A stretch of DNA of 42,456 nucleotides from Dehalococcoidia bacterium (GCA_011170325.1 DUEX01000003.1:16661-59116); one strand, 5' to 3'; shown: positions 15,486 to 36,556, numbered from the stretch's first letter. Notes: generated from the letters alone by a model not told the origin. Made by a program: numbers and translations.

Positions 15486-15950
15486 TCAGACTCGTTTGGT
15501 CCTCTCAATCAGTTCCTGACCTCTTCCTTGCTGTACACAATCAGCGACTACTGAGCCTAAAACTCCGTTAACAAATTTTTGGGAGGTATCACTGCCGAAA
15601 CTCTTAGCTAACTCGACAGCTTCATTAATAGCTGCTTTAACTGGGGTTCTATTATCTAACAAAATCTCAAATATGGCAAGGCGGAGAATATTTCTGTCGA
15701 TAGTAGCTATTTGTTCCACAGGAAAAGCAGGAGCGAATCTTCGAATCGTATCATCAATATCCTCCTTATTCTGAAGAATCCCGGTAACTAGTTCCCGAGT
15801 AAAGTCAGCCGCCTCCTCCGGCAAAGCTTTCTCTTGTAGCAAGCGAGCTAAAACCTCCTCCGGTCCATGAGCGGAACAGTCAATCTCATAAAGTGTCTGT
15901 AAAGCAGCAATTCTGGCTTTGCGTCTGAATCCAGTCACTCTAATACTCAT
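15486..15950 (-). CDS. nusB: Transcription antitermination factor NusB
   Basis: RRKAR.AALQ.LY, DRNILRLA, INEAVELAK.F, FVNGVL. Confidence 0.97.
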   Translation of the reverse strand: MSIRVTGFRRKARIAALQTLYEIDCSAHGPEEVLARLLQEKALPEEAADFTRELVTGILQNKEDIDDTIRRFAPAFPVEQIATIDRNILRLAIFEILLDNRTPVKAAINEAVELAKSFGSDTSQKFVNGVLGSVVADCVQQGRGQELIERTKRV

Positions 15951-17076
15951 CCCCGAACAAGTGAATATTTCCTAGCCGCATACGGTATAATCCAGCCTCT
16001 TTAGCTACTTTTAGGCACCGCTCAGCGTGCTGGAGCGAAGTAGTTGGCAAATCTGTCATCAAGAAATCAGGATGGAAGCCAAGGAGAACATAAGGTATAT
16101 TTGGGTCTAAAGAGGCGATGAATGTAGCAATATTAAAAATTTCCTCTTCGTCTATGTAGCCAGGAATAAGCAAAGTACTAGCTACGAGGAAAGGCGGCGA
16201 AGGTCTCCTCTTAATATAATCAGCCAGAAGGTGGAAATTCTCGAGGGTTCTTTTGTTACTTACTCCGCAAAGGGCAATATGTAACTCCTCACTCCAAGCT
16301 TTAAGGTCGAACTTGATACAACCACCAGAGTTGAGAGAAAGCTCAGCAACTTGCTTAAGTAAAGCTGGATGCATCGAACCATTAGTCTCCCAGCAGATGC
16401 GGAGGATACGCCCTTTACTTTTATCTATAGCTAAGCGGGAGGCACGCAAGGCATGAGGCAATTGCGGTGTTGGGTCACCACCAAAATAACAAATGCAGGA
16501 AGTGTGATCATCAACGGCGTCAGCTAGTTCCGTGGGACTGGCCCAATTCTGTTGCCCTGCTGCCAATCGGTAGTGCCAATTTTGACAGAAGAGGCAGTCA
16601 AAAGAGCAGGCTTGATAAAAAACAGCTAGATTTTTATAACCATGCTCAGGTCCTGGACGGTAAGCAAAGTCGGGATAGCCTGAACCTATGCCACCAGGAC
16701 AAACCCAATCAGCAACGCAGTTCGTAGGTAGCGGGTCATAATACCAGCTTACATTACCTTTCTTAGTAGTAGCACCAGTGAGTTTGCCTGCTATGGATAG
16801 GCGTAAGCCGCAATAACTTCTCTCGCCATCCGAAAGTTGGCATTCATTAAAGCACAGGTGGCAAGCTATACTGCCTTCTGCCTTCGGCGGTTGTGGTGGC
16901 AAGTTGAAAGACTGTCTCGATTCTCGATGAGCTTTTTGGATGAGAGGCGCAACTTTTTCAAAATTCTGGCGGATACAATCAAGACATAAACCCAGGATTT
17001 GAGAAATAAGGACGGATCCCTTGTTGCAATGCATACACCTGGTAGCAGTTTTAAGAGGTAAGTTATGTTTTAGCAT
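15940..17076 (-). CDS. Radical SAM protein (PFL-activase-like/AmmeMemoRadiSam-like) with extra N-terminal Cys clusters
   Basis: CSFDCLFC, FGGDP, ETNG, DLKA motifs; N-terminal CxxC and CxxCxxxC; exact start uncertain. Confidence 0.88.
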   Translation of the reverse strand: MLKHNLPLKTATRCMHCNKGSVLISQILGLCLDCIRQNFEKVAPLIQKAHRESRQSFNLPPQPPKAEGSIACHLCFNECQLSDGERSYCGLRLSIAGKLTGATTKKGNVSWYYDPLPTNCVADWVCPGGIGSGYPDFAYRPGPEHGYKNLAVFYQACSFDCLFCQNWHYRLAAGQQNWASPTELADAVDDHTSCICYFGGDPTPQLPHALRASRLAIDKSKGRILRICWETNGSMHPALLKQVAELSLNSGGCIKFDLKAWSEELHIALCGVSNKRTLENFHLLADYIKRRPSPPFLVASTLLIPGYIDEEEIFNIATFIASLDPNIPYVLLGFHPDFLMTDLPTTSLQHAERCLKVAKEAGLYRMRLGNIHLFGDEY

Positions 17077-21871: not shown

Positions 21872-22711
21872 TCAGACTTGTTCCACCAGCGCTACACCTA
21901 TAGCATGAGGACCGGTATGGGCACCAACTACTGGCCCGAAGACAAACCGACGTATATTCTCCATCGGGAATATAGAGCTCAGGCGCTGAGCAAACGCCTC
22001 GGCCTTGTCAGGGGTAGTGGCCTGTTCCACTGCTAATGCTCTGATGTTGTCAAATCCTTTGACGAAGTTATACAGCCAGTCAAGTGCTTTCTCACGGCTG
22101 CGTGTCCGGGCAATGCCCTCGACTAAGCCATCGATAATTCCGATGATAGGGTTTATCTTGAGCACTGAGCCCATGAACGCCTGAGCGGTACCGATGCGCC
22201 CACCTTGATGCAGATACTCCAGCGTGTCAAAACAGATACGGGTGTGAGTCTTGGGTATGAATTTCCGTATCACATCCATTATCTGGTCTAGGCTGGCTCC
22301 CAGTTTAGCTTCCTCAGCGGCTATCATAACCAGAAGCGCCTGACCGGCTATTGTGGTCAGGGTATCAATTACCTCCACTCGGCAGTCCTTTCGCTTCCTT
22401 AGTTCCAGGCCCTCGATTGCCGATTCATAAGTGGCGCTTAACTTTGCTGAGATTGTTAGTGCCAACACCTCACTGGTCTCTTCAGCTAGCTTATCGTAAG
22501 CCTCGGCAAAAGCCCCGGCTGGCGGAGCACCGGTAGTGGGAAACACCTTGTCCTTTGCTAGCCTATAGAAGAGTTCTGCTGGCTGTATGTCGAGCCTATC
22601 GCGGTACGACTCGCCTCCAAAATTGACCCACAGAGGTGCCACCGTGACGCCCAGTTCACGGGCCATCTCGGGTGTAATATCGGAAGTGCTGTCTGTTACT
22701 ATCTTGACCAT
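21872..22711 (-). CDS. DegV/FakB fatty-acid-binding protein
   Basis: IVTDSTSD, IS.KLSATY, L..GGRIG, GAHTGP. Confidence 0.95.
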   Translation of the reverse strand: MVKIVTDSTSDITPEMARELGVTVAPLWVNFGGESYRDRLDIQPAELFYRLAKDKVFPTTGAPPAGAFAEAYDKLAEETSEVLALTISAKLSATYESAIEGLELRKRKDCRVEVIDTLTTIAGQALLVMIAAEEAKLGASLDQIMDVIRKFIPKTHTRICFDTLEYLHQGGRIGTAQAFMGSVLKINPIIGIIDGLVEGIARTRSREKALDWLYNFVKGFDNIRALAVEQATTPDKAEAFAQRLSSIFPMENIRRFVFGPVVGAHTGPHAIGVALVEQV

Positions 22712-22730
22712 GATACCTCCGTTTATATTG

Positions 22731-23162
22731 CTAATCCGTAGCTTTTGATCTCCTCACTACGTACCATAGAGATGAACTCTTAGCTATAATTGTGCTGTCT
22801 TTTAGGGAGAGGGTGGCTTCAGTCTCAACCAGCCTTGATGTCTTTTTGGTAATCTGAGCTGAAACTTGAATTGGCTCATCAATAGGTGCTAGGTTGGCAA
22901 ATCTAACCTCACTCTTAACGGTAATGCAATTCAATCCTGCGTAGATAACAGCATAACCGGCTGCCTCATCAAGAAGAGTACATAGAATGCCGCCATGGGT
23001 TATTCCTGGCCAGCCTTGATGAAATTTCCCTGGGGTAAATTCTCCCTTGACTATCCCTCCGTCATCAGTAAATTGCAGCTTTAACCCTATGGGATTATCT
23101 TTGCCGCAGGCAAAGCAGAGACTACCAGTGGCGTCGCCGATTTTCGGCTGCGGAATTTGCAT
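22731..23162 (-). CDS. PaaI-family hotdog thioesterase
   Basis: CFACG..NP.GL and HQGWPGITHGG...LLDE. Confidence 0.9.
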   Translation of the reverse strand: MQIPQPKIGDATGSLCFACGKDNPIGLKLQFTDDGGIVKGEFTPGKFHQGWPGITHGGILCTLLDEAAGYAVIYAGLNCITVKSEVRFANLAPIDEPIQVSAQITKKTSRLVETEATLSLKDSTIIAKSSSLWYVVRRSKATD

Positions 23163-23261
23163 CTCATCCTCTCTCTAATGTTTTCTCTGACATCGTTATA
23201 CTATGTATTTGTCTAAGTGCAATACTCCCCCATTAGTATTTCTATAGCTCATAGCCTGATT

Positions 23262-24014
23262 CTAGGTTATTACACCACCGTCTACATTAATGACCTGCCC
23301 GGTGATATAATTAGCGCGGTCACTGGCAAGAAAGGCCACTACTTCCGCCACATCTTCAGACGTGCCGAAGCGCTGTAGTGGTATTTGAGATAATATAGAC
23401 TCCTTTAACTCAGAGGACAACTTGGCTGTCATTTCTGTGGTTATGAAGCCCGGGGCTACAGCATTCACGGTTATGTTACGGGAACCTAATTCCCGAGCCA
23501 AGCTTTTAGTGAAAGCGATGAGTCCGCCTTTAGAAGCTGCGTAGTTGCTCTGCCCCACATTACCGGTTAATCCGGCAACAGAAGCGATATTGATAATGCG
23601 CCCCCACTGTTGGTTCATCATGGAGCGTAAGGCAAACTTAGTGCAAAGATAGGCACCACGCAGGTTAGTATCAATCACGCTATCCCAGGCTTCATCGGGC
23701 ATTCTCAGCAGCAGATTGTCCATGGTGATGCCGGCATTATTTACTAAGATGTCGATCTTGCTCCATTTGTCAGTTATTTGATGCACCATGGCCCTGACTA
23801 GATCGCTATCTCGAACATCCGCTGGCGTTAGTATGGCTTCACCGCCTTGGCTTATGATAGATGACATTACATCCTTGGCTTCAGCCTCTCGGTTTAGGTA
23901 ATTAATAGCTACTTTGGAACCCATGCCAGACAACTTTAAAGCAATAACCCTGCCCAAGCCACGGGATGCGCCGGTGACCAGTGATACCTTGGCCGAAAGT
24001 TCCAAAGAAGACAT
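23262..24014 (-). CDS. fabG: 3-oxoacyl-ACP reductase
   Basis: TGASRGLG, NNAGIT.D, GQSNYAASK, VAPGFI.T.MT. Confidence 0.96.
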   Translation of the reverse strand: MSSLELSAKVSLVTGASRGLGRVIALKLSGMGSKVAINYLNREAEAKDVMSSIISQGGEAILTPADVRDSDLVRAMVHQITDKWSKIDILVNNAGITMDNLLLRMPDEAWDSVIDTNLRGAYLCTKFALRSMMNQQWGRIINIASVAGLTGNVGQSNYAASKGGLIAFTKSLARELGSRNITVNAVAPGFITTEMTAKLSSELKESILSQIPLQRFGTSEDVAEVVAFLASDRANYITGQVINVDGGVIT

Positions 24015-24018
24015 TTTA

Positions 24019-25251
24019 TTACCCGGTGAAGCGTTTTAAGACCAGACAGCAGTTTTGGCCACCCATGCCAAATGAGTTGGAGAGACAAACATTTACTTCA
24101 GCCCGGCGCGCCACATTGGGGACATAGTCTAAATCACACTCAGGATCGGGGATCTCGTAATTCACCGTTGGTGGAATAATTGCGGAGTTTATGGTTAAGA
24201 TTGAGGCGATAGCTTCGATAGCGCCAGCCGCAGTTATTATATGTCCAATCATAGATTTATTAGAGCTGACGGGGATTTTGTAGGCATGCTTGCCGAAGAC
24301 GGTTTTAATAGCCTTAGTTTCGCTAGCATCATTGAGCTTAGTGCTGGTGCCATGAGTGTTTATATAATCAACATCCTCAGGTGCTATCCCAGCGCCCTTA
24401 AGAGCGCCACTCATGGCTATAGCTTCTACTTCGGGGTCAGGAGCGGCTTCATTGTAAGCGTCAAAGGAGCGAGAGGCTCCAGCAAGTTCAGCCAAAATGG
24501 GTGCTCCCCGGCTCATAGCATGTTCTAAGGTTTCTAAGATCAATATAGCGGCACCTTCGCCATAAACAAAGCCATTACGGTTAAGGTCAAAGGGGCGAGA
24601 AGCCTTGGCTGGGTCCGCCTCCCGAGATAAAGCGCCAACAAGCCCCATACCGGCTATAGGTAGCTCAGCTATAGCGGCGTCGGTTCCTCCAGCTAACATG
24701 ACATCGGCATAGCCTAACTGAATGTAATCGTTGGCGGTGGCCAAGGCATCGGCGCCGCTGGCACAGGCGGTGTTTACACTCGAATTAGGCCCCTTAGCCC
24801 CGAACAATATACCTACTTGCACCGATGCCATATGAGGTCCTATCCTGGTAATAAATAGAGGGCTTATCCTCTTTGGGCCACGGCTCTTAAGCACTTCATG
24901 CTCCTCAACGATTCCACGGATGTCGATACTGGTAGCAATGGAAACGCCTATGCGCTCGGAACTTTCTGTTGAGAAATCTAGCTTGGCTGACTCAACTGCC
25001 ATCTTGGTTGCGGCGATGGCAAACTGGGTGAACCTAGCGGTTCGGTCGACCATTTTTGTATCCATGTATTTTGCTGGCTCAAAGTTGGGCACTTCAGCAG
25101 CTATCTTCACTGGGAAATTAGTGGCATCAAATTGAGTGATGTAACCAATGCCTGACTTTCCGGCAGTCAACCCAGCCCAGAATTCATCTACGGTCATGCC
25201 TAAAGGCGTGACCGCTCCCATACCGGTGACAACAACTCGACGCTTAGGGAT
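24019..25251 (-). CDS. fabF: Second, divergent FabF-type ketosynthase; apparent ATC start
   Basis: TACASG, THGTST, GHIITAAG and SNSFG motifs; conserved PKRRVVVTG lies upstream of the first ATG (25221), after an AAGGAG SD. Confidence 0.9.
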   Translation of the reverse strand: MPKRRVVVTGMGAVTPLGMTVDEFWAGLTAGKSGIGYITQFDATNFPVKIAAEVPNFEPAKYMDTKMVDRTARFTQFAIAATKMAVESAKLDFSTESSERIGVSIATSIDIRGIVEEHEVLKSRGPKRISPLFITRIGPHMASVQVGILFGAKGPNSSVNTACASGADALATANDYIQLGYADVMLAGGTDAAIAELPIAGMGLVGALSREADPAKASRPFDLNRNGFVYGEGAAILILETLEHAMSRGAPILAELAGASRSFDAYNEAAPDPEVEAIAMSGALKGAGIAPEDVDYINTHGTSTKLNDASETKAIKTVFGKHAYKIPVSSNKSMIGHIITAAGAIEAIASILTINSAIIPPTVNYEIPDPECDLDYVPNVARRAEVNVCLSNSFGMGGQNCCLVLKRFTG

Positions 25252-25288
25252 GATATCTCCTTTTATTTACCGTTTATACTCCTAAGAA

Positions 25289-26056
25289 TCAGTAAGCGGT
25301 TTGAGAAGGTGCCAGAGATAGTCCACCATCGATGATAATAGTCTGTCCTCGTATCATATAAGCCTGGTCACTGCAGAGGAAAGCTACTATATTAGCCACG
25401 TCGGCAGCAGTTACCATTCTACCGGCCGGGGTCATTTGCCATCTGGCGCCTGCTCCTGCCTGCTCATCAGCATAGAGTTTTAGTGCCTCTGTCTGCACTG
25501 CAGCTGCGGCTACTGAATTGACGCTGATGCCTTTTGGAGCTAATTCTATGGCTAAATACCGGGTTAGTGCCTCCAGAGCAGCCTTAGATATGCCAACGGC
25601 AGCATAACTGGGCCAGACGAGGGAAGAGCCTAAGCTTGAGATAGCAACTATTTTGCCGTCTCTACCTTCCATAAGCTTAGCCGCTCGTTGGGCACAAAAT
25701 AGAAAGGCTTTGGCATTGATATCCATTGTCCAATCCCAAGCTTGGCTATCTAGCTCTAAAACGGAGCGGGCGACGCCTGAGGCAGCATTGTTGATAAGTA
25801 TGTCAAGCCGTCCAAAATCGTTGCTTATGGTCTCAAACATGCTATCGATTTTTTCAATTTCACCAACATGAGCTTTAATAATTCGGGCAGTGCCCCCTTT
25901 GCTTGCTGCCTCTGCGGCAGTTTGCTCCGCTGCCTGGCGATGGCGGAAAAAATTGATTATAACATCAGCTCCTTCTTCAGCCAGTCTAAGCACTATTGCC
26001 CGACCAATGCCCCGAGAGCCGCCAGTTACTAGAGCTACTTTGCCCTTAAGAGACAT
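25289..26056 (-). CDS. fabL: Enoyl-ACP reductase III (FabL-type SDR)
   Basis: NNAASGV, WDWTM.INAKA.LFCAQ.AAKLM, ISSLGS, Y-x6-K (YAAVGISK), AALEALTRYLA.EL, matching Bacillus FabL as recalled. Confidence 0.88.
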   Translation of the reverse strand: MSLKGKVALVTGGSRGIGRAIVLRLAEEGADVIINFFRHRQAAEQTAAEAASKGGTARIIKAHVGEIEKIDSMFETISNDFGRLDILINNAASGVARSVLELDSQAWDWTMDINAKAFLFCAQRAAKLMEGRDGKIVAISSLGSSLVWPSYAAVGISKAALEALTRYLAIELAPKGISVNSVAAAAVQTEALKLYADEQAGAGARWQMTPAGRMVTAADVANIVAFLCSDQAYMIRGQTIIIDGGLSLAPSQTAY

Positions 26057-26068
26057 CTCTTAGCCACC

Positions 26069-26314
26069 TTAACTAGCTTGACGTCGGTCAATATAATTCA
26101 GCATATCACCAAAATTGGTGAGCGTTTCTGCATCCTCATCCGAGATTTCAATCCCGAAGGCGTCTTCTAGAGCAACCAATATCTGCACTAGGTCAAGCGA
26201 ATCAGCATCTAAATCCTTCCAGGTAGTTTGAGGAGTCAGGTTGTCCTCATTACAATGCACTATTCCGGTAATGATGCCTTTTATAGTTTGCTCGATAGAC
26301 TTAGTCCTTTCCAT
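26069..26314 (-). CDS. Acyl carrier protein
   Basis: DLDADSLDLVQI with intact Ser; overlaps the plsX stop. Confidence 0.92.
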   Translation of the reverse strand: MERTKSIEQTIKGIITGIVHCNEDNLTPQTTWKDLDADSLDLVQILVALEDAFGIEISDEDAETLTNFGDMLNYIDRRQAS

Positions 26315-27311
26315 TGTGTAGCTGCCTCCTAATCCTTATTAACTCCGAGTTTAGACTATTTACCAGACCAGATTCGACCATGGTCTTCGCTTGAGCTATA
26401 GCCCTGGTAAACTGTAAAGCTTGGCTACGCCCGTGCATTACCATAGCCACACCATTGACCCCTAGCAAAGGTCCACCACCAAATATATCAGCAGTATTGG
26501 TTAGAGCAAGTAAATCATTGCTCACCCTATCGATTTCAGTATTTGATAACTTCCCACTCAGGCTGGTTTTCAGCCACTTGGCAATAGTGGCTCCTAAACC
26601 CTCGCAGAATTTTACCAAGATATTGCCTACAAAGCCATCACAGACAATCACATTAGCTCGACCGGTGACAATATCATTTCCTTCTACATTGCCAATAAAA
26701 TTTAAGCCACTTCTTTGAAAAAGGGGATAACTTTCCTTAACCAGTTCGTTTCCCTTACCTTCCTCAGCGCCGACACTGAGCAATGCCACAGTGGGGTTTG
26801 GGATATTTAATAATTTCTGGGCATAAACACAACCTACAATAGCAAAGTTTAAAAGGTGATAAGGCTTGCAGTCAACATTACCTCCGTTATCCAACACAAT
26901 TGTATTTGGGCTAAAGCCCAGGAAGTTACCACCAATCACTGGGCGGTCTATACCTTCAGGGGTACCTAAAATCATCAGAGCACTAGCGACTACCGTTCCT
27001 GTGGGACCAGCACTGATTATGGCATCAGCCTCTCCATTTTTCACCAGCTTTGTTGCCACGATTACCGAGGCGTTACGCTTCTGACGCAGTACCAGAGCCG
27101 GTGGTTCACCTTCTTTAACAGACTCATCTGCATTAATACAGTTGATAGCCAGATGAGAAACATCATACTTGACTAGCTCTGCCTGCAATGTGGGCAGTGG
27201 ACCGACCAAAATAACTTCTAATCCTTTCTCTTGAACGGCTGAAACTGCACCCTTGATTACCTCATTAGGTGCATAGTCGCCACCCATGGCGTCTACAGCT
27301 ATCCTGACCAT
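26301..27311 (-). CDS. plsX: Phosphate acyltransferase PlsX
   Basis: IAVDAMGGDYAP, EEGKGN, FIGNVEG, DGFVGN, HGRS. Confidence 0.97.
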   Translation of the reverse strand: MVRIAVDAMGGDYAPNEVIKGAVSAVQEKGLEVILVGPLPTLQAELVKYDVSHLAINCINADESVKEGEPPALVLRQKRNASVIVATKLVKNGEADAIISAGPTGTVVASALMILGTPEGIDRPVIGGNFLGFSPNTIVLDNGGNVDCKPYHLLNFAIVGCVYAQKLLNIPNPTVALLSVGAEEGKGNELVKESYPLFQRSGLNFIGNVEGNDIVTGRANVIVCDGFVGNILVKFCEGLGATIAKWLKTSLSGKLSNTEIDRVSNDLLALTNTADIFGGGPLLGVNGVAMVMHGRSQALQFTRAIAQAKTMVESGLVNSLNSELIRIRRQLHNGKD

Positions 27312-27314
27312 TTT

Positions 27315-27779
27315 TTATCTACTGGCATCTTCTAATGCCACCTCGCTATTTAGCGGTGTTTTAACCATTGCTTCTCCGGTCACTATCGTCTCTTGATTCT
27401 GATTGTGACAGCTTACACTGCAACTAAAATTAAGACTGTTATTCTCTACCGCGACAGAGTTAACCTTCCCAGTGACACTGATGGTATCTTTAGACCGAGC
27501 CGGCGCCTTAAATCGAACTGCCAACTTACCTGCTGAAGACCAGCTTTCCCCAAAGGCTAGCGTCATCATTTCCGATACATAGGCTAAAATGAGCATGCCA
27601 TGGGCAATAGTGCCACCAAAGGCAGTCTGAGCAGCAAATGACTCGTTGACATGGATTGGGTTAAAGTCAGCAGAAGCTTCGGCATAAAGATTTATCTTCT
27701 CCTGGCTAAGATGCTTCACTATTTCAGGTAGGGCATCCCCGGGGTGTAATTTCGGAAGCTTAGAGCCGGATAAAGTCAT
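27315..27779 (-). CDS. MaoC-family (R)-specific dehydratase, catalytic subunit (HadB-like)
   Basis: Hydratase-2 motif YAEASADFNPIH...FGGTIAHGML. Confidence 0.9.
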   Translation of the reverse strand: MTLSGSKLPKLHPGDALPEIVKHLSQEKINLYAEASADFNPIHVNESFAAQTAFGGTIAHGMLILAYVSEMMTLAFGESWSSAGKLAVRFKAPARSKDTISVTGKVNSVAVENNSLNFSCSVSCHNQNQETIVTGEAMVKTPLNSEVALEDASR

Positions 27780-27791
27780 TTTGGATTACCT

Positions 27792-28175
27792 TCAGTTGGG
27801 TAAGATTAAAGTTGTCTTCCCAGAAAGAACTAATTCCTCATCTTGGTCAAAGGTGGTAAGCTCGATTACCAGCATACTTAATTTGGTGCGGCTTAGCTTC
27901 TGTACAACTCGGGACTGACAACATATGCGTGAGCCAACAGTTACTGGCTTGAAGAACTCTAATTCCTGTGAGGCGTGAACTGAGCCAGGCGGCATATTAA
28001 TGGACTGGGAGACCGCTTTCATGGTATAAGCGGCAATCGCAAAGGGTGGGGCGAAGCTGGCAACTGGTGAATGAGCCTCTACCGCTTCTTCATACTTGGA
28101 AATAATCGAAGGGGTGAGCTCATAGTTAACAGGCGGCAACTCATAGCCCACTTTTAATTCTTCATACCTTATCAT
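27792..28175 (-). CDS. MaoC-like hotdog protein, non-catalytic partner (HadA-like)
   Basis: APP...VHASQELEFFKPV.VG pattern; no D-x-NPIH motif. Confidence 0.8.
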   Translation of the reverse strand: MIRYEELKVGYELPPVNYELTPSIISKYEEAVEAHSPVASFAPPFAIAAYTMKAVSQSINMPPGSVHASQELEFFKPVTVGSRICCQSRVVQKLSRTKLSMLVIELTTFDQDEELVLSGKTTLILPN

Positions 28176-28194
28176 CAGTAAATTTGAGGAATTT

Positions 28195-28223
28195 AGTATA
28201 AGATTACCTCAAGATTAAGTCAA
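28195..28223 (-). promoter_or_regulatory. Sigma70 promoter of the maoC-plsX-acp-fabL-fabF2-fabG operon
   Basis: Minus strand TTGACT-17 nt-TATACT. Confidence 0.75.
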
Positions 28224-28395
28224 GAGGAGTGGCTATTAGTATACCTCGAATAACTATGCTCATAGTAGCCTAATGGCTCTACTCTTGTCAAGTTTAGCAA
28301 CACTTTTTGGACTTAGATTAACTCTCATTTGAACACTCCTAGAACATCCTCGGCTCTTGGAGTATAATCACTACTTACAGTGGAGAGTGTCAAAA

Positions 28396-29601
28396 GTGGT
28401 GAAAAAGGCTTTGGCGAAGGATGAATTAAAGGCAGAGGTAAATAAGCAAGTAGAGTTTCACCGCCACGAACTTATTGAATTAAGCCTTAGGATTCATGCC
28501 AATCCTGAGCTAGGATTCAAGGAGGAGAAGGCATCGGCTTGGTTAACCGGTTATCTCGAGAAAAATGGGTTCCAGGTGGAAAAAGGTACAGGAGGTTTGC
28601 CCACATCTTTCAAAGCAGTCTACAGCAAAGGCAAACCGGTTATTGCTTTGCTGGCTGAGTACGATGCCTTGCCTGAAGTCGGACATGCCTGTGGGCACAA
28701 TATAATAGCTGCCTCAGCAGTAGGAGCCGGTGTGGCTAGTAGATGTATTGTTGATAACTATGGTGGGACAGTTGCCGTTTTTGGTACTCCTGCAGAGGAG
28801 CTTTTTGGTGGTAAAGTAACCATGTTGCAAGCTGGAGCTTTTGATGGACTGGATGTAGCCATGATAGTACATCCTGGAGTGCGAAATATGGCAACTACTG
28901 AAGCACTTGCTTGTATTAGCTTGGAGATTGAATTTATTGGTAAAGCAGCTCATGCTGCTGCTCATCCTGAGCAGGGAATCAATGCTCTGGAAGCTGTGGT
29001 TTTAGCTTTTAATGCCGTAAACTCACTTCGCCAACATATTAAAGACAAAGCCCGTATCCATGGTATAATTACCTCTGGTGGTGAAGCCGCTAACATAGTG
29101 CCAGCTTACTCCTCAGCTAAATTACTAGTCCGTGCTTCAGACAACGCCTATCTTGACGAACTAAAGCAAAAGGTTCTAAACTGTTTTAGTGGAGCCTCAC
29201 TAGCTACTGGAGCTCGGTTGGACTACAAATGGGGGGAAATAATCTACGCTCCGATGAACAATAACTTGTTCCTAGCCCAGCTCTTCTCCCAAAATCTCAA
29301 ATCTTTAGGCCGCAAGATAGAACCTTTTGAGCCTCGCTTTGGTTTTGGCAGCACCGATATGGGTAATGTTAGCCAAGTTATACCTGCCATTCACCCTTCA
29401 GTTGCTATTGCCTCTCCCGGCATATCGCTGCACTCAACGGATTTTGCCCTAGCTGCTGCCTCTGAAGCAGGACATAAGGGGCTGCTAGATGCTGCTAAAG
29501 TTCTGGCTATGACAGTCGTCGACCTTCTCAGTGAACCTGAGACGTTGGCTAAGGTCAAGGATGAATTTTCTCACAGCCATGACAAAAGTTGGTATTCCTA
29601 G
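28396..29601 (+). CDS. M20 family amidohydrolase (ACY1L2/AbgB-like)
   Basis: IH.NPELG, EYDALP, HACGHN, GTPAEE, HP, GSTDMGNVS; start approximate. Confidence 0.93.
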   Translation: MVKKALAKDELKAEVNKQVEFHRHELIELSLRIHANPELGFKEEKASAWLTGYLEKNGFQVEKGTGGLPTSFKAVYSKGKPVIALLAEYDALPEVGHACGHNIIAASAVGAGVASRCIVDNYGGTVAVFGTPAEELFGGKVTMLQAGAFDGLDVAMIVHPGVRNMATTEALACISLEIEFIGKAAHAAAHPEQGINALEAVVLAFNAVNSLRQHIKDKARIHGIITSGGEAANIVPAYSSAKLLVRASDNAYLDELKQKVLNCFSGASLATGARLDYKWGEIIYAPMNNNLFLAQLFSQNLKSLGRKIEPFEPRFGFGSTDMGNVSQVIPAIHPSVAIASPGISLHSTDFALAAASEAGHKGLLDAAKVLAMTVVDLLSEPETLAKVKDEFSHSHDKSWYS

Positions 29602-30577
29602 AGCTTTACTCTACTACCAATATTATCCCATGTGGAGAACCTTCTTCGAGGAGTTGGGAGTTGAGACAGTCTTATCAACTCCAACTACGAAAGCTATGGT
29701 CAATTCAGGGTGCTCAAGGATGGTAGCTGAAACCTGCTTACCAGTGAAAGTTTTCTGCGGGCACGCTCTTTCTTTAGTGGATAAATGTGACTATATGTTT
29801 ATCCCGGCTATCCGTAGTATGGGGAAAAGAGCCTATAATTGTTCTAAATTCTTAGGTTTGCCTGATATGATGAAGGCGGTGATACCAGAATGCCCGCTAA
29901 TTCTTGATATGGATATAGATGTCACCAATGGAAAACGCACCCTGTATCAGAATATTTATAGCTTAGGCCGTCATTTCACCTGGAATCCAGCTAAAGTTAA
30001 AAAGGCGGCAGAGAAAGCCTGGGAGTGTCATTTGGCTTATTACCAGCAAATGTTTAGCCAAGGGCTTACACCAACTCAGGCGATAGATGAAATATTCAGT
30101 GAAAAGGGGGTAGGGGTAGACCAAGAAACAGCTAATTCGTCTTTAACACTGACCGTTGCTGTTGTCGGACATCCTTATCTCATATATGACGATTATATCA
30201 ATCACCGCCTCATCCACCGGCTACAAACCATGGGTGCCAGAGTCCTAACCCCAGAGATGGTAGACGAGGAAGTGCTTGATGTGGCCATGACTAAATTGGT
30301 AGGCAACCCTCGCTGGACTTATGAAGTTGATGTAATCGGTGCCGGTGGTTATTACCTTGAGGTGAAAGTCGATGGTGTAATCGGTGTGATCGCCTTCGGC
30401 TGCGGTCCTGACTCAGTAATGATGGACATGGTGTATCGTAAAGCTAAGCGACTTAAGGCGATTCCCTTTATGTGTCTTACACTTGATGAGCATACTGCTG
30501 ATGCTGGATTAGTTACTCGTCTTGAGGCTTTTCTCGATATGGTTAAAAGGCGGAGGAGAGAGCAGACATGCGTGTAG
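29579..30577 (+). CDS. DUF2229-type Fe-S reductase/dehydratase subunit (activase-related)
   Basis: KVGIPRAL, ETCLPVK, NCSK, GHPY, FGCGPD, DEH...G..TRLEAFLD; ATG at 29579 overlaps the M20 gene end. Confidence 0.85.
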   Translation: MTKVGIPRALLYYQYYPMWRTFFEELGVETVLSTPTTKAMVNSGCSRMVAETCLPVKVFCGHALSLVDKCDYMFIPAIRSMGKRAYNCSKFLGLPDMMKAVIPECPLILDMDIDVTNGKRTLYQNIYSLGRHFTWNPAKVKKAAEKAWECHLAYYQQMFSQGLTPTQAIDEIFSEKGVGVDQETANSSLTLTVAVVGHPYLIYDDYINHRLIHRLQTMGARVLTPEMVDEEVLDVAMTKLVGNPRWTYEVDVIGAGGYYLEVKVDGVIGVIAFGCGPDSVMMDMVYRKAKRLKAIPFMCLTLDEHTADAGLVTRLEAFLDMVKRRRREQTCV

Positions 30578-31668
30578 GCATACCTCATGCTGGTAACATT
30601 TATATCCCTTTCAGGACGCTATTTAGAGAATTAGGCACTGAGCTTGTGGTACCACCACCCAATAACCAGCGGGCACTGGACTTAGGGGTCAAGTATGCTC
30701 CTGAGGGAGTCTGTATCCCTTTCAAGCTAACTTTGGGCAATTTAATCGAGGCTTGTGAGCTAGGCGCTGATACTGTTCTTCAAGCTGGCGGTTTTGGTAT
30801 CTGCCGATTAAGCTACTATGCTAAGACGCAGAAGGAAATTCTTCATGACCTAGGCTATGATGCCGAAATGCTTACCTTCGATGTATCACAGAACAAACTT
30901 CGAGGGATCCTTCAGCTCATTAAACATGTATCCGATAATGCACCTTGGTCTAAGGTTATCCCAGCTTTCCGCTTTGGCTTAGCTAAGGTAGCTGCCGTGG
31001 ATGATATAGAGAAAATAGTACACAAGATGCGAGCCGTAGAGTTAGAAAAAGGAACAGCTAACAGAATCTATCGAGAGGCTATAACAGCTATCGATGAGGT
31101 TGCTGACCATGGCACTTTGAAACGGGTGGTTAAAGACTATAGTGAAAAGCTATACCAGATATCCAGAAACCCTGATGCCGACTCGCTCAAAGTTGGCATA
31201 GTCGGTGAAATTTTTGTAGTCTTGGACCCCTTTTCCAATTTAGACCTGGAAGTAGAACTAGGTAAATTAGGAGTGGAAGTAAAGCGCGCTATTTTCTTCT
31301 CCCGCTGGACCAAATTCAGCCTTTTTCTTAACCCTTTGGGTGTGGATGAGTGGAAAAAGGTGCATGAGGCAGCTATGCCTTATCTTAAGCGCGATGTCGG
31401 TGGCGATGGCTGGGAATCAGTAGGTGAGAAAGTATTTCATGCTCACCAGTACGATGGCATAGTTCATGTAGCACCTTTCACCTGCATGCCAGAGGTAGTG
31501 GCTCAAAATATTATGCCTTCAACTAAGGAGGACATCCCGGTACTCACTCTCCTTTGTGATGAGCAAACAGCCAAACCAGGAATGCTAACCAGACTCGAAG
31601 CTTTCGTCGACATGCTGAATTTCAGACGAAAGAGGATTGGGAATCTAAAACCGGGAGTTATAAAATAG
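30568..31668 (+). CDS. Second 2-hydroxyacyl-CoA-dehydratase-like Fe-S subunit
   Basis: CIPFK, G.CR..YY, VGIVGEI, PFTCMPE, DEQT...G..TRLEAFVD. Confidence 0.85.
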   Translation: MRVGIPHAGNIYIPFRTLFRELGTELVVPPPNNQRALDLGVKYAPEGVCIPFKLTLGNLIEACELGADTVLQAGGFGICRLSYYAKTQKEILHDLGYDAEMLTFDVSQNKLRGILQLIKHVSDNAPWSKVIPAFRFGLAKVAAVDDIEKIVHKMRAVELEKGTANRIYREAITAIDEVADHGTLKRVVKDYSEKLYQISRNPDADSLKVGIVGEIFVVLDPFSNLDLEVELGKLGVEVKRAIFFSRWTKFSLFLNPLGVDEWKKVHEAAMPYLKRDVGGDGWESVGEKVFHAHQYDGIVHVAPFTCMPEVVAQNIMPSTKEDIPVLTLLCDEQTAKPGMLTRLEAFVDMLNFRRKRIGNLKPGVIK

Positions 31669-31672
31669 GGCT

Positions 31673-32638
31673 ATGAAAACCTATCTTGGTATCGATGTTG
31701 GTTCACTAACTACTAAGTTAGCTCTGCTTGACCAAGACAACCGGCTTCTTACAGCAGTTTATTTACGTACTCAAGGTAAACCAGTTGCCATGATTCAAGA
31801 AGGGTTAGAACAAATTAGAGACCAGATGCCCTATGGAGCTGACATCTGTGGGGTGGCTACCACAGGTAGTGCTCGTTACTTAGCTGGTGTGGTAACTGAT
31901 GCTGACCTGGTAAAGAATGAGATTACCAGCCAAGCCTTTGGCGCCATACATTATGTTCCTGATGCCCAGACTGTAATCGAAATTGGCGGTCAAGATAGCA
32001 AAATTATAATTATTCGCGATGGCGTAGTCATCGACTTTGGCATGAACACAGTATGTGCTGCTGGCACTGGCAGCTTTCTTGACCACCAAGCCTCACGGTT
32101 AAATATTAATATTGAGGACTTCGGACAGCAGGCCTTGCAAAGCAAAACACCAGTGCGCATTGCTGGGCGATGCACTGTCTTCGCTGAGTCAGATATGATT
32201 CATAAGCAGCAGATGGGGCACAAAACTGATGATATCCTCTACGGTTTGTGTCAAGCCCTGGTACGTAATTTTATCAATAATGTTGCTTTGGGTAAGGAAA
32301 TCCTGCCTCCAGTAGTCTTTCAGGGTGGGGTGGCATTCAATGCGGGGATTGTCAAAGCATTTGAGGAAAGCTTAAGTACTCAGGTTATTGTGCCTCCTCA
32401 TCACGAGGTTCTAGGAGCTATCGGCGTTGCCCTTGTAGCACGTGAGGAAATAGAAGCCAGTGGTAACATGACCAAATTTAGAGGTTTCAGCATCAGTCAG
32501 GCAAATTACCATACTTCATCTTTTGAGTGCAAAGCTTGCCCCAACGTGTGCGAAATTGCCCAGCTTTCCCTTGATGGTAAAGTTCTGGCTAGGTGGGGAG
32601 GTCGCTGTGACCTATGGGAAAGAGCGTCGACTGGTTGA
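31673..32638 (+). CDS. ATP-dependent activase (HgdC/BadFG/BcrAD ASKHA ATPase) with C-terminal Cys domain
   Basis: GIDVGS.TTK, EIGGQDSK, CAAGTG.FL, RCTVFAESD, QGGV; tail FECKACPNVC...GGRC. Confidence 0.93.
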   Translation: MKTYLGIDVGSLTTKLALLDQDNRLLTAVYLRTQGKPVAMIQEGLEQIRDQMPYGADICGVATTGSARYLAGVVTDADLVKNEITSQAFGAIHYVPDAQTVIEIGGQDSKIIIIRDGVVIDFGMNTVCAAGTGSFLDHQASRLNINIEDFGQQALQSKTPVRIAGRCTVFAESDMIHKQQMGHKTDDILYGLCQALVRNFINNVALGKEILPPVVFQGGVAFNAGIVKAFEESLSTQVIVPPHHEVLGAIGVALVAREEIEASGNMTKFRGFSISQANYHTSSFECKACPNVCEIAQLSLDGKVLARWGGRCDLWERASTG

Positions 32639-32650
32639 GGCAGATGTGAA

Positions 32651-33112
32651 ATGAAGGTTATTTTTCTAAAGGACGTATCAGCTAAAGGGGGAAAAGGGGA
32701 TATAAAAGAAGTAGCTGATGGCTATGCAAGGAACTTCCTTTTCCCCCAAGGTTTAGCTTTGCTAGCAACACCAGCAGCCATTAAAGCAGCTAAAGCCCAG
32801 TCCGAAGAGAGAGTACAACGCCGAACTCGTCAGCAAGAAGAATTAGCTGAGCTAATTCAGCGTCTGGAGGGGAAAGAGCTGCATTTCAAGGCTCGAGTGG
32901 GTGCTAGAGGTCGCCTTCATGGTGCCGTTACTAGTGCTGACATAGCTGGTGAGCTTTCTCAGCTTATCAGCTTTGAGATTGACAAGAAAAAGGTTGAGCT
33001 AGATGAACCATTGCGTCATCTAGGTAGCTACGAAGTAGCCATCAGCTTAGCTAAAGGTTCAGAAGCTAAGATCAAAGTAGTTGTTGAGGAAGAGAAGATC
33101 CAAAGTGATTAG
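32651..33112 (+). CDS. rplI: 50S ribosomal protein L9
   Basis: MKVIFLKDV...[11 protein letters not shown]+L.G.VT..DI. Confidence 0.97.
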
Positions 33113-34497: not shown

Positions 34498-35220
34498 ATG
34501 ACTAAGAAACCCTTCCTTGGTTTCCCAGCAAGAACGGAGGTTACCCCGATACCTAATCTGTTCTTCACTGCGTTAGTGCCACAGATTGAAGATATCGCTG
34601 AGCTCAAGACGGCATTGCATATTTTCTGGCTACTCAGCCGCCGACAAGGCTATCCTCAGTTCGTAACTTATAGCGAGCTCCTGTCTGACCCTGTCCTCAT
34701 GAGTGGCATAAAGGAAGGAACCAAGCCTGTAGATGAGATACTTCGTCACACGCTACATTTAGTTGTCCAACATGGCATTATGCTTCACCTAAGGCTTGAC
34801 AGAGACGGAGAGTTCGAAGATGCTTATTTTATCAACACCGAAATTGGGAAGAGAATAATCGATGAAATTCAACAAGGTAAACTCATGTTACCAGATCTGA
34901 TGCCTAATAAATATGAGGAATTGGGAGCCGCACTGCCATCGGGCATTTTTAGTCTCTATGAACAAAACATAGGTATGCTTACACCAATAATCGCGGAAGA
35001 ACTTCAGGAGGCTGAGAAACTTTACCCGGCAGATTGGATTGAGAGTGCTTTTAAAGAGGCAGTTGCTTTAAATAAGCGTAGCTGGAAGTATATCGCGCGT
35101 ATCTTAGAGCGGTGGGCTATTGAGGGTAAAGATAATGGAAAGCCTGGGAGAGATTTTAAAAAAGAAAGCGATTCCGGCAAATACATCAGGGGCAAATACG
35201 GACATATGGTTAAGCGCTGA
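34498..35220 (+). CDS. DnaD-domain replication protein
   Basis: IF.LYEQNIG.LTP...W...A..EAV..NKRSWKYI..IL.RW, typical of the DnaD/DnaB_2 domain. Confidence 0.85.
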   Translation: MTKKPFLGFPARTEVTPIPNLFFTALVPQIEDIAELKTALHIFWLLSRRQGYPQFVTYSELLSDPVLMSGIKEGTKPVDEILRHTLHLVVQHGIMLHLRLDRDGEFEDAYFINTEIGKRIIDEIQQGKLMLPDLMPNKYEELGAALPSGIFSLYEQNIGMLTPIIAEELQEAEKLYPADWIESAFKEAVALNKRSWKYIARILERWAIEGKDNGKPGRDFKKESDSGKYIRGKYGHMVKR

Positions 35221-36556
35221 GGCAGGGGAAGAAAGCTCGCCTGATTCCACTTGTCCCCTGTGTAAAGGAGCTGGCTTCGTATATCCTCTATTAGCTTCGG
35301 GGCGTCCTGATTTCAGTCGAGTTGTCCCCTGCAAATGCACCCATGGAGGGCTGCAAAAAGAGAAACTAGCTCAGCTTCAGCAATACAGTAATCTGGGCGC
35401 TTTATCTCGACTGACTTTTGACAACCTTCTACAGGCTGGAAGACATAGCGAAGCTACATCGCAGCAGTATTTCACACAGGCTTATGAAGCAGCCAAAGCT
35501 TTTGCTGCTGATCCCAAAGGATGGTTGGTCTTAATCGGCCCCGGTGGCTGTGGCAAAACACACTTGGCTTGCGCCATTGCTAATCATCGTCTAAGCCTAG
35601 CTCAGCCTGCCTTTTACATAGGAGTCGCTGATTTACTAGACCATCTTCGCTCTACCTTCAGCCCTAGCAGCGACATCGCCTACGATGAGCTGTTTGAACG
35701 AGTGAAAAATACCCCGCTTTTAGTCTTGGATGACTTAACCATGGCGGTTACTACCGCTTGGGCAAAGGGAAAGCTAAAACAGTTGCTTGACCACCGTTTC
35801 AATACTCAGTTACCTACAGTAATCACTAGCGATGTGCCAATTGAAGAGTTTGAGGAGGATTTACGAGGCCGCCTAACTGCCCCTGAGTTCTGTCAGATAT
35901 GTGTGATTCAAGGAAAATCCTCACCGTCTTTAGAGCACCTCGGAGGCCTAGAATTAGAGTTATTACGAAAAATGTCCTTCAAAAATTTTGATTGTAAGCG
36001 ATTGAACCTCCCAGCCGAACATCGTCAGAACTTGGAGCAGGCGTTCCGTATCGCCTTCAATTTTGCTCAATCTCCCCAAGGCTGGCTAGTCTTCCAGGGG
36101 GTTAATGGCTGTGGCAAAACACATTTGGCAGCCGCCATTGCCAATCATCTGCATCAAGAAGGCAAATCAGTCTTGTTTATCGTGGTTCCTGACCTCCTTG
36201 ACTATTTGCGTTCTACTTTTAGTCCAGAAAGCAGAGTCTCCTATGATGAGCTCTTTGAGAAAGTTAAAAAGGCTCCAGTACTTATTCTTGATGATTTTGG
36301 TGAACAGTCAGCTACACCATGGGCTCAAGAAAAGCTCTATCAGCTGATTAACTACCGCTATAATGCCAGGTTAGCCACAGTAATTACTACCTGTTTTTCC
36401 TTAGACGAGATTGAAAGTCGCATCAGCTCTCGAATGGTAGACCCTAGCCTTAGCCTAGTCTTTAACATCATGGCTCCTGATTATCGGGGCGATATACAGG
36501 CAGCTCGGGAGGCTAGGTTACAGCAGCGATATTCTCGGCGAGGTCGCCAGTCTTAG
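35135..36556 (+). CDS. DnaC/IstB-like helicase loader with two tandem AAA+ domains
   Basis: N-terminal CxxC...CxC; two Walker A (GPGGCGKT, GVNGCGKT) and two Walker B (LVLDD, LILDD). Confidence 0.88.
   Translation: MESLGEILKKKAIPANTSGANTDIWLSAEAGEESSPDSTCPLCKGAGFVYPLLASGRPDFSRVVPCKCTHGGLQKEKLAQLQQYSNLGALSRLTFDNLLQAGRHSEATSQQYFTQAYEAAKAFAADPKGWLVLIGPGGCGKTHLACAIANHRLSLAQPAFYIGVADLLDHLRSTFSPSSDIAYDELFERVKNTPLLVLDDLTMAVTTAWAKGKLKQLLDHRFNTQLPTVITSDVPIEEFEEDLRGRLTAPEFCQICVIQGKSSPSLEHLGGLELELLRKMSFKNFDCKRLNLPAEHRQNLEQAFRIAFNFAQSPQGWLVFQGVNGCGKTHLAAAIANHLHQEGKSVLFIVVPDLLDYLRSTFSPESRVSYDELFEKVKKAPVLILDDFGEQSATPWAQEKLYQLINYRYNARLATVITTCFSLDEIESRISSRMVDPSLSLVFNIMAPDYRGDIQAAREARLQQRYSRRGRQS

Follow-up and report, generated by a model that had tools for sequence, protein, structure and literature searches.

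The window analyzed here is a stretch of 42,456 nucleotides from a Dehalococcoidia bacterium (GCA_011170325.1, DUEX01000003.1:16661-59116), and all positions are counted from its first letter. In this uncultured sediment bacterium, three genuine and tightly packed plus-strand open reading frames (ORFs), called A, B, and Act below, lie between a gene for a peptidase-like protein and the ribosomal protein gene rplI. The features of the locus are as follows.

21872 to 28175, minus strand: fab operon, consisting of hadA, maoC, plsX, acp, fabG, fabF, SDR, 4HBT thioesterase, and degV (Pfam; context only)
26301 to 27311, minus strand: plsX (Pfam)
27315 to 27779, minus strand: maoC (Pfam)
27792 to 28175, minus strand: hadA (Pfam)
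28176 to 28395, no strand: divergent intergenic region separating hadA (minus) from the M20D gene (plus), read from the sequence
28357 to 29601, plus strand: M20D amidohydrolase (HmrA/Xaa-Arg dipeptidase-like), first gene of the operon; ORF of 414 amino acids with Peptidase_M20, M20_dimer, and TIGR01891 matches
29579 to 30577, plus strand: subunit A, DUF2229-type reductase subunit, counterpart of Red1 in the fused enzymes; 332 amino acids from ATG (PF09989)
30568 to 31668, plus strand: subunit B, paralogue of A, counterpart of Red2/PlsR; 366 amino acids (N-terminal part of PF09989)
31673 to 32638, plus strand: Act, lone ATPase (activase) of the HgdC type with four cysteines in a C-terminal tail; 321 amino acids (BcrAD_BadFG, TIGR00241)
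32651 to 33112, plus strand: rplI (ribosomal protein L9; Ribosomal_L9_N and Ribosomal_L9_C), followed by dnaB (context)

The reading frames of A and B overlap by 10 nt, B and Act are spaced by 4 nt, and rplI begins 12 nt past Act on the same strand, with no terminator-like site found between the two. The head of the operon is the M20D gene and not the trio, which starts 1.4 kb from hadA; the M20D frame runs 23 nt into A. A first-pass annotation of this DNA had described three coupled genes for two cysteine-bearing subunits and one activase with a CxxCxxxC...GGRC tail, and the ORFs, domains, and tail are all as described. It had also drawn the operon of the trio as diverging from the fab operon across about 220 bp. 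The divergence holds, as does the distance if the M20D gene starts at GTG 28396, but the trio is not first, and the M20D gene, which that annotation did not mention, intervenes.

The M20D ORF scores 220 bits against TIGR01891 (cut-off 153.75), and its closest solved structures are HmrA (3RAM, 4.9e-81) and the Xaa-Arg dipeptidase (7YH4, 1e-63). The gap between hadA and this gene is 181 bp if translation starts at TTG 28357 and about 220 bp if it starts at the in-frame GTG 28396. Translation more probably begins at the GTG near 28396, since relatives align to 371–378 of the 414 residues, the PDB and NCBIfam matches start at residues 27–40, and a 1-nt insertion at 28380, present in the contigs of three of four runs, would break the longer frame. 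The intergenic region carries TATAAT at 28363–28368, GGAG at 28382–28385, and in-frame GTG codons at 28387, 28396, and 28399, as well as three promoter-like sites on the minus strand (the scan gave 18 sites in total, against a mean of 13 for shuffled sequence, which is not much fewer). Contigs of all four public runs, which come from four studies and of which one is possibly the source sample, bridge the junction from 28175 to 28357, so the arrangement of hadA and the M20D gene is not an assembly artefact.

DUF2229 (PF09989; Pfam cut-off 29.4) spans the whole of A at 184.3 bits, and in B it covers only the N-terminal 70 residues at 45.9 bits. The two subunits are 25% identical (E 2e-20). All 60 sequences compared for A keep the cysteines C53, C88, and C275; in B, C49 and C306 are kept in 54 of 54 and C79 in 53 of 54. 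These conserved residues would be ligands of iron-sulfur clusters. Structures modelled with AlphaFold2 (AF2), at pLDDT 93.8 for A and 86.5 for B, were compared with solved structures by Foldseek at E<=0.001. All matches listed for A, from a total of 22, are DCCP, HadBC, BzdNO, or MbdON chains except the one at rank 21, which is unrelated, and all those listed for B, from a total of 19, belong to the same four groups.

Act carries one BcrAD_BadFG domain (163.6 bits, Pfam), which A and B do not have, and matches the acyl-CoA dehydratase activase model TIGR00241 at 196.7 bits (NCBIfam, cut-off 125.4). All 49 sequences compared keep its C128 and C167, which we take to be the equivalents of the HgdC cluster ligands, and also C286, C289, C293, and C312 of the tail motif C-x2-C-x3-C...G-G-R-C. 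A lone activase that keeps both cluster cysteines fits a homodimer, in line with the homodimeric activase that had been suggested earlier. Thus, the trio has the subunit fold, the conserved cysteines, and the ASKHA-type ATPase with two cysteines that characterize the 2-hydroxyacyl-CoA dehydratase/benzoyl-CoA reductase superfamily (HgdAB/HadBC, BcrBC/BzdNO, and DCCP), whose DUF2229 branch also holds PlsA/PlsR and Ger. It very probably encodes an ATP-driven iron-sulfur reductase.

The shared superfamily, the HgdC-like activase, and the peptidase gene upstream could together be read as a classical 2-hydroxyacyl-CoA dehydratase of amino-acid fermentation, supplied by the dipeptidase. The closest solved example is the (R)-2-hydroxyisocaproyl-CoA dehydratase HadBC with its activator HadI (PDB 3O3M/3O3N and 4EHT), also a heterodimer of paralogues, whose fold A and B are predicted to have in common at query-normalised TM-scores of 0.56–0.60 (3o3m_B/D, 3o3n_B). 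However, identity to the 3O3M/3O3N/3O3O chains is only 10%–17% in the Foldseek alignments, and Act has the additional four-cysteine tail. The HGD-D domain (PF06050) of such dehydratases is sub-threshold in A (26.4 bits against a cut-off of 28.4, C-terminal last 60 residues only) and has no Pfam match in B, and all members of the split clade among those listed are DUF2229 proteins. The pathway context is also different, with no CoA-transferase or 2-hydroxyacid dehydrogenase gene among the Pfam-scanned genes from 15210 to 40407. Four true HGD-D loci lie elsewhere in the genome, three of them (C87, C103, and C92) with their own activase on the same contig and one (C71) without. A fermentative dehydratase is therefore a very improbable identity for the trio, and the grouping with such enzymes that the first-pass annotation had named as evidence against its own reading is not seen.

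The same genome also encodes a fused protein of 1386 amino acids in which two ATPase domains are joined to a DUF2229 domain, as published for PlsA/PlsR and Ger. Act with its cysteine tail aligns to residues 307–625 of this protein (37% identity, E 8e-66), which correspond to the second ATPase domain plus a linker that shares the C-x2-C-x3-C...C motif of the tail; A aligns to residues 654–961 (28%, E 1e-30) and B to residues 1007–1256 (28%, E 2e-20). The ATPase domain of the fused protein in turn matches HadI (4EHT) at 6e-25. The trio matches the activation domain with its cysteine linker, Red1, and Red2 in order, in a comparison made with the fused protein of its own genome only, and this agrees with the earlier proposal that the domain set of PlsA/PlsR/Ger is present here as separate proteins. 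The trio is thus a split paralogue of the fused form and not its replacement. Among 251 genomes, 13 have both forms, 17 the split form only, 52 the fused form only, and 169 neither, so that the two occur together in 13 of 30 split-bearing genomes and are not complementary. With a fused form already in the genome and such co-occurrence, the trio is not simply the Ger or PlsA of the organism. A quick tree places the fused D-domains in a clade of their own (SH-aLRT 100) and the fused C-terminus with the B clade (support 88). Each of the 120 longer proteins among the matches listed for A is a fusion of A with B, about 700 amino acids in length.

The anaerobic plasmalogen synthase PlsA/PlsR is encoded by two genes in Clostridium perfringens (CPE1194-CPE1195) and has single-gene forms in Enterococcus and Lactococcus; its parts are named Act1, Act2, Red1, and Red2 (PMC12838417). 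The parts are the same as in the trio, namely, an HgdC-type activation domain, a DUF2229 Red1 (A), and a Red2 (B); the fused protein encoded here has the same cysteine-rich linker behind its activation domain, and the module is likewise without dedicated partner genes. The trio differs in being encoded by three genes in the order A-B-Act and not as Act1-Act2-Red1 (+Red2), and in having one activation domain in place of two fused ones. The identity of 28%–37% was measured to the fused-type paralogue of this genome and not to proven PlsA/PlsR sequences, and this modest value counts against a lipid substrate.

The glycerol ester reductase Ger, known from Thermotoga maritima (Tmari_0479) and Desulfatibacillum alkenivorans (SHJ90043), has DUF2229 and BcrAD_BadFG domains in common with the trio. 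Its arrangement, in which two ATPase domains accompany a DUF2229 domain, is called conserved in all alkyl-ether producers in PMC13159169, where Ger was screened for by DIAMOND against the T. maritima protein (e<=1e-50, coverage of at least 30%). The trio does not have this fused layout, and even against the fused paralogue from its own genome the match of A reaches no better than E 1e-30. In E. coli, Ger is described as producing 1-alkyl glycerol monoethers only under anaerobic conditions (PMC13159169); the enzyme encoded by the trio is predicted to be oxygen-sensitive as well. The only members of the PlsA/PlsR/Ger architecture known to us to have a tested function reduce glycerolipid esters (PMC13159169 for Ger; PMC12838417, PMC9702350, and a 2026 bioRxiv preprint for PlsA/PlsR), and one 2026 paper describes the role of such split homologues as unclear.

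The location beside a fab operon was part of the original case for a lipid role. This link is peculiar to the source genome: neither hadA nor maoC lies beside the trio in any of 80 related Dehalococcoidia loci, and in one genome (G041) the same fab operon is located elsewhere on the chromosome, so the linkage to fab genes is not conserved in relatives. Other lipid genes do recur within Dehalococcoidia. For example, in 40 of 62 loci Act is directly followed by a second plsX paralogue (plsX2), and a divergent yceD...fabK-fabD cluster lies 5' of the trio in 16 of 80. Act and rplI keep the same order in related loci, with or without an intervening plsX2 or TrxB-like gene, and these lipid neighbours could be an inherited local gene order near rplI-dnaB and yceD-rpmF. 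None recurs in 69 loci of other lineages, where plsX, plsY, hadA, maoC, and fabF were each found at 0 of 69 loci by tblastn with Dehalococcoidia queries (E<=1e-8, coverage of at least 50%), and no lipid enzyme is seen among 30 Pfam-scanned proteins representing the recurrent neighbour groups of those lineages. Of the 69 loci, 48 preserve the order A-B-Act, as do 9 of the 11 Dehalococcoidia-like loci from metagenomes. B-like genes also stand alone in other Chloroflexota, where they adjoin a Mur-type ligase gene in 5 of 9 loci and a FemAB gene in 4 of 9.

The most constant partner of the trio in Dehalococcoidia is the dipeptidase-like M20D gene, which points away from lipids. It is directly 5' of A in 58 of 70 related loci with enough upstream DNA, and also in one other Chloroflexota genome (G087, locus L117). 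An enzyme of the same class may thus act on a non-lipid substrate, in which case the peptidase would either liberate or use up an N-acyl or amino-acid-derived compound, the carbonyl of which A/B would reduce or dehydrate. The overlapping frames and the relationship to HmrA and the Xaa-Arg dipeptidase suit such a pairing, and the Mur-type ligase and FemAB neighbours of the B-like genes are amide-bond enzymes too. Yet M20D is found at 0 of 69 trio-keeping loci of other lineages and is thus not an obligate partner, and it is missing or non-adjacent in 12 of the 70 Dehalococcoidia loci. We also know of no reaction in the superfamily that takes a peptidase product directly. Taken together, a substrate linked to the peptidase appears rather unlikely.

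Outside Dehalococcoidia, the module sits amid unrelated housekeeping genes that differ by lineage, with no dedicated partner. In 13 of 43 eligible loci of these lineages, spoVAC, spoVAD, spoVAE, and a GerA-family gene (SpoVAF-like) come before it and lysA comes after it, and in the source genome it stands 12 nt ahead of rplI-dnaB. A self-contained module with such variable neighbours could encode a housekeeping or developmental reductase for another common cell component or a small molecule, similar to DCCP and internal to the forespore in spore formers. DCCP with its reductase DCCP-R (PDB 6ENO, 7YYL) gives the top Foldseek E-values for both A and B. By sequence, however, the nearest characterized group is the PlsA/Ger type and not DCCP, to which there is a weak C-terminal match; the NCBIfam double-cubane equivalog NF040772 gives 23 bits where its cut-off is 350, over the C-terminal 60 residues only. 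In addition, A would pair with B in a heteromer, and each has three invariant cysteines, whereas DCCP has six on one chain. No natural substrate of DCCP is known to us. This kind of reductase is an improbable but still credible candidate.

The absence of dedicated partner genes outside Dehalococcoidia would also suit an enzyme for a universal cell component such as a membrane lipid. The explanation favoured here, offered tentatively when taken as a whole, is that A, B, and Act are the three subunits of an oxygen-sensitive, ATP-driven iron-sulfur reductase of the DUF2229 branch with a lipid ester as its substrate; the choice of substrate, taken separately, is just as tentative. We infer the cluster types, subunit composition, and electron path of the enzyme as follows. 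In the Act homodimer, C128 and C167 would carry a bridging [4Fe-4S] cluster, and ferredoxin or flavodoxin would supply the homodimer with electrons. Hydrolysis of ATP by Act would then drive a low-potential electron into the clusters of the A/B heterodimer, in which three cysteines per subunit may leave one iron site open, and the heterodimer would reduce the carbonyl group of the substrate. The likeliest substrate would be a membrane glycerolipid, the acyl ester of which would become an alkyl or alk-1-enyl ether, with the trio acting alongside the fused paralogue that this genome also encodes, perhaps at a different position or on a different lipid class.

The observation that opened this analysis is confirmed, and the interpretation first placed on it is partly supported. 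For the biology of this sediment bacterium, and judging from its sequence, the trio is a candidate relative of the enzymes that turn ester lipids into ether lipids, encoded as separate pieces.

The genome from which the window comes is 1.8 Mb in size and 92% complete (the window is its contig C59), and nearly all of its closest relatives among public genomes are metagenome-assembled genomes of Dehalococcoidia or Dehalococcoidales. On the plus strand of the window, four genes are packed head to tail: an M20D amidohydrolase gene, which is absent from the first-pass annotation, and a trio coding for two subunits, A and B, and an activase, Act. Next to the M20D gene lies a minus-strand fatty-acid (fab) operon.

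Features of the locus (coordinates, strand, description)
28357-29601, plus strand: M20D amidohydrolase open reading frame (ORF), 414 aa (TIGR01891, 220 bits)
29579-30577, plus strand: A, overlapping the M20D stop by 23 nt
30568-31668, plus strand: B, overlapping A by 10 nt
31673-32638, plus strand: Act, after a gap of 4 nt
12 nt past Act: rplI, then dnaB, a DnaD-like gene and a DnaC-like gene
Minus strand: fab operon, hadA-maoC-plsX-acp-fabG-fabF-SDR-thioesterase-degV
Beyond degV: yceD, a 65-aa ORF (taken to be rpmF), second acp, second KAS, acpS, fabK, fabD, a radical SAM gene, nusB

No terminator-like site was found between Act and rplI. In its translated sequence, the DnaC-like protein (35120-36556, 478 aa) apparently consists of two tandem helicase-loader-like halves, each with a Walker A motif of its own (GxxGxGKTHL). 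The radical SAM gene (15940-17076) has homologues in several related loci. The nearest solved structures to the M20D protein are HmrA (3RAM, 4.9e-81) and an Xaa-Arg dipeptidase (7YH4, 1e-63). Translation probably starts from an in-frame GTG near 28396 rather than from the TTG at 28357, since alignments of relatives span 371-378 of the 414 residues, its matches in the PDB and NCBIfam set in at residues 27-40, and contigs from three of four public runs have a 1-nt insertion at 28380. With this start, the intergenic region of about 220 bp reported in the first-pass annotation is reproduced.

The trio has the make-up of an activase-dependent enzyme. DUF2229 covers the full length of A (184 bits) and is confined to the N-terminus in B; the two are paralogous (25% identity, E 2e-20), and Act is a BcrAD_BadFG/TIGR00241 activase. 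When each protein was aligned with homologues from 69 metagenome loci of lineages outside Dehalococcoidia, C53, C88 and C275 of A were kept in 60/60 sequences, C49 and C306 of B in 54/54 and C79 in 53/54, and C128, C167 and the tail cysteines C286, C289, C293 and C312 of Act in 49/49. AlphaFold models are confident (pLDDT 93.8 for A, 86.5 for B), and Foldseek gave 22 PDB matches for A and 19 for B at E<=0.001; those listed are all DCCP, HadBC, BzdNO or MbdON chains, bar one unrelated chain (rank 21, for A). No solved DUF2229 structure was found in the PDB, and an ESM Atlas search with B returned DUF2229 clusters only, none with a function.

The same domains occur in fused form elsewhere in the genome. 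A 1386-aa protein on contig C13 carries two BcrAD_BadFG domains and a DUF2229 domain, the layout published for Ger, and for PlsA once PlsR is added (PMC13159169, PMC12838417, and a 2026 bioRxiv preprint). Residues 307-625 of this protein align with Act and its Cys tail (37% identity, 8e-66), residues 654-961 with A (28%, 1e-30) and residues 1007-1256 with B (28%, 2e-20). Since the parts align in order, the earlier description of the trio as the same domain set in separate proteins stands, and the trio is a paralogue coexisting with the fused form in one genome.

Among 251 Dehalococcoidia genomes, which are related and thus not independent, the split form is found in 30 (two with stop codons) and the fused form in 65: 13 have both, 17 split only, 52 fused only and 169 neither. 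Replacement of the fused form by the split one was rejected, because it would predict mutual exclusion, and the two forms are not complementary. In a quick maximum-likelihood tree, the fused D-domains form a separate long-branch clade (SH-aLRT 100), the window's A is placed among Chloroflexota split and A-B fused forms, and the fused C-terminus groups with the B clade (support 88); where the fused clade stands among the split forms is a provisional placement (support 89, not starred). Matches to A that are broken by stop codons or fragmented (G029:C5:43001-43952, G385:C26:30559-31506, G040:C1:49935-50270) suggest that the split system was recently lost in some lineages.

The split family is large. 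A search with A over 1.84 billion representatives gave 2857 clusters at E<=0.001, and 512 (clustered at 50% identity) at E<=1e-30. The best 150 are 175-770 aa long, none of the fused size of about 1400 aa, and all 120 of the longer homologues listed are A-B fusions of about 700 aa, which supports a predicted A/B heterodimer. One of the 10 cluster representatives looked up comes from a named organism, Anaeromonas frigoriresistens. The order A-B-Act is kept in 48 of the 69 loci of other lineages; ten lie on contigs that stop no more than 1.1 kb past B, and three are short contigs without a B match. The eight that deviate comprise five without an adjacent Act, one B-A-Act, one with a second A copy and one short B-A fragment. 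In locus L118 (8978-13055, G320), two B copies stand in tandem between A and Act (62% and 54% identity to B); plsX2, a DUF1462-like gene and a TrxB-like gene come next, and the locus is transcribed divergently from rplI-dnaB instead of preceding it. In other Chloroflexota classes, stand-alone genes 42-46% identical to B occur with no A or Act nearby (L106, L108, L110, L112, L114); a Mur-type ligase gene adjoins in 5/5 of these loci and a FemAB-family gene in 4/5 (not L106).

The assignment of the trio to activase-driven, ATP-coupled Fe-S reductases is well supported. In the proposed mechanism, a low-potential donor would charge a dimer of the activase; the dimer would inject electrons, coupled to ATP, into an A/B Fe-S heterodimer, which would then attack a carbonyl. 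At one locus only (L117:2534-11778, G087), M20D-A-B-Act is preceded by genes for EtfB, an EtfA carrying a ferredoxin domain, and a flavoprotein similar to FixC/ETF-QO; these could be a low-potential electron source. That the trio is instead a classical 2-hydroxyacyl-CoA dehydratase is very improbable: its HGD-D scores fall under the cut-off, no CoA-transferase gene was seen among the window genes scanned in Pfam from 15210 to 40407, and four true HGD-D loci exist elsewhere in the genome (contigs C87, C103, C71 and C92), all but the one on C71 with activases of their own on the contig. Counting the trio and the fused protein as well, the 1.8-Mb genome has six systems of the superfamily.

Contigs of 4/4 public runs bridge the hadA/M20D junction, so the arrangement of fab operon and trio is real, yet it is peculiar to this genome. 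hadA and maoC were found in 0/80 related Dehalococcoidia loci, and the linkage to the fab operon was dropped as functional evidence. In a complete Dehalococcoidales chromosome (L105:7853-11865, G041), the genes directly ahead of hadA-maoC-plsX-fab, on its strand, code for two true HGD-D proteins and two BcrAD_BadFG ATPases, of which one has a ferredoxin domain; thus another member of the superfamily likewise adjoins fab genes.

Other neighbours do recur in Dehalococcoidia. Of the 70 related loci with enough upstream DNA, 58 have M20D immediately before A. Downstream, 62 loci extend far enough to show what follows Act: a plsX homologue in 40, a thioredoxin-reductase-like flavoprotein gene in 16, rplI in four and another gene in two. 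The yceD...fabK-fabD cluster is the divergent upstream neighbour in 16/80. The plsX paralogue adjoining the trio in these relatives, PlsX2, is 50-64% identical to a copy beside plsY on contig C97 of the window's genome and only 40-44% identical to the plsX product of the window's fab operon. On C97 (L104:1466-8578), PlsX2 (345 aa) and plsY are accompanied by a geranylgeranyl-reductase-like FAD protein, a SAM methyltransferase, a DeoC-type aldolase and a Zn-dependent alcohol dehydrogenase, which could be a small lipid-backbone cluster. In many Dehalococcoidia, rplI is separated from the trio (or from plsX2) by the gene of a thioredoxin-reductase-like flavoprotein (about 305 aa; e.g., L083:13176-14431, L024:11180-12100). 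A 110-aa protein with a weak DUF1462 match (24.5 bits, cut-off 25) is often encoded ahead of it; the window lacks the flavoprotein gene.

A membrane-lipid ester as the substrate is a tentative reading, held at somewhat less than even chances. It agrees with the only characterised DUF2229 enzymes, which act on membrane-lipid esters, with the self-contained A-B-Act module, and with the recurrence of lipid genes beside the trio in three different arrangements. However, this recurrence stops at Dehalococcoidia: plsX, plsY, hadA, maoC, fabF and M20D are each found in 0/69 loci of other lineages, and the lipid neighbours may reflect an order of genes near rplI-dnaB and yceD-rpmF that was simply inherited. 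The genome also already has a fused paralogue. The most faithful local partner is the dipeptidase-like M20D, and a non-lipid substrate linked to it is a rather unlikely alternative. Another housekeeping or forespore substrate is equally unlikely. The split form occurs in many spore formers, and in 13 of 43 eligible loci of other lineages spoIIAA-spoIIAB-sigF-spoVAC/AD/AE and a SpoVAF-like gene of the GerA family precede the trio, with a PLP enzyme and lysA after it. Elsewhere the trio has unrelated housekeeping genes beside it (class II aldolase, FeoB, SIMPL, a TetR regulator in three loci, CCA-adding enzyme, tRNA synthetase, ScpA and others). Of the split PlsA/Ger-like lipid system first proposed, the gene arrangement is confirmed, and the interpretation is supported in part.

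Non-isoprenoid ether-linked lipids are widespread in anoxic sediments and serve as biomarkers, and their producers are partly known. To our knowledge, the large fused PlsA/PlsR and Ger are the only anaerobic enzymes proven to make them. In the accessible parts of PMC13159169, PMC12838417 and the 2026 bioRxiv preprint, these are described in fused or two-gene forms only. According to PMC13274423, Bacillota genomes hold extra PlsA homologues without an activation domain, whose role it calls unclear; these are probably the split family. A literature search on COG3580/COG3581 found nothing on that family, though Table S7 of PMC13274423 and table S21 of PMC13159169 may list split homologues. No report of ether lipids in Dehalococcoidia was found among the papers listed; in one of them the class appears as a 16S rRNA result only. 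To this the window adds a coexisting fused paralogue, M20D coupling with counts, two PlsX paralogues, and a fab adjacency that is real but genome-specific.

One could consider, as a doubtful but consequential possibility, that split A-B-Act is a second, independent ether-bond-forming lipid reductase, possibly differing from fused Ger/PlsA in glycerol position, lipid class or product type, with non-isoprenoid ether lipids made by abundant sediment Dehalococcoidia and by the forespores of many Clostridia. If true, published screens that start from the fused protein in full length may miss the split form, and some of the orphan alkyl-glycerol ethers in anoxic sediments would thus be given a source. 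The locus is a convenient test case, because the fused paralogue in the same genome permits a side-by-side comparison. Identification of the substrate of the split form would either add to the known ether-lipid producers or reveal a new reaction of this radical-enzyme family.
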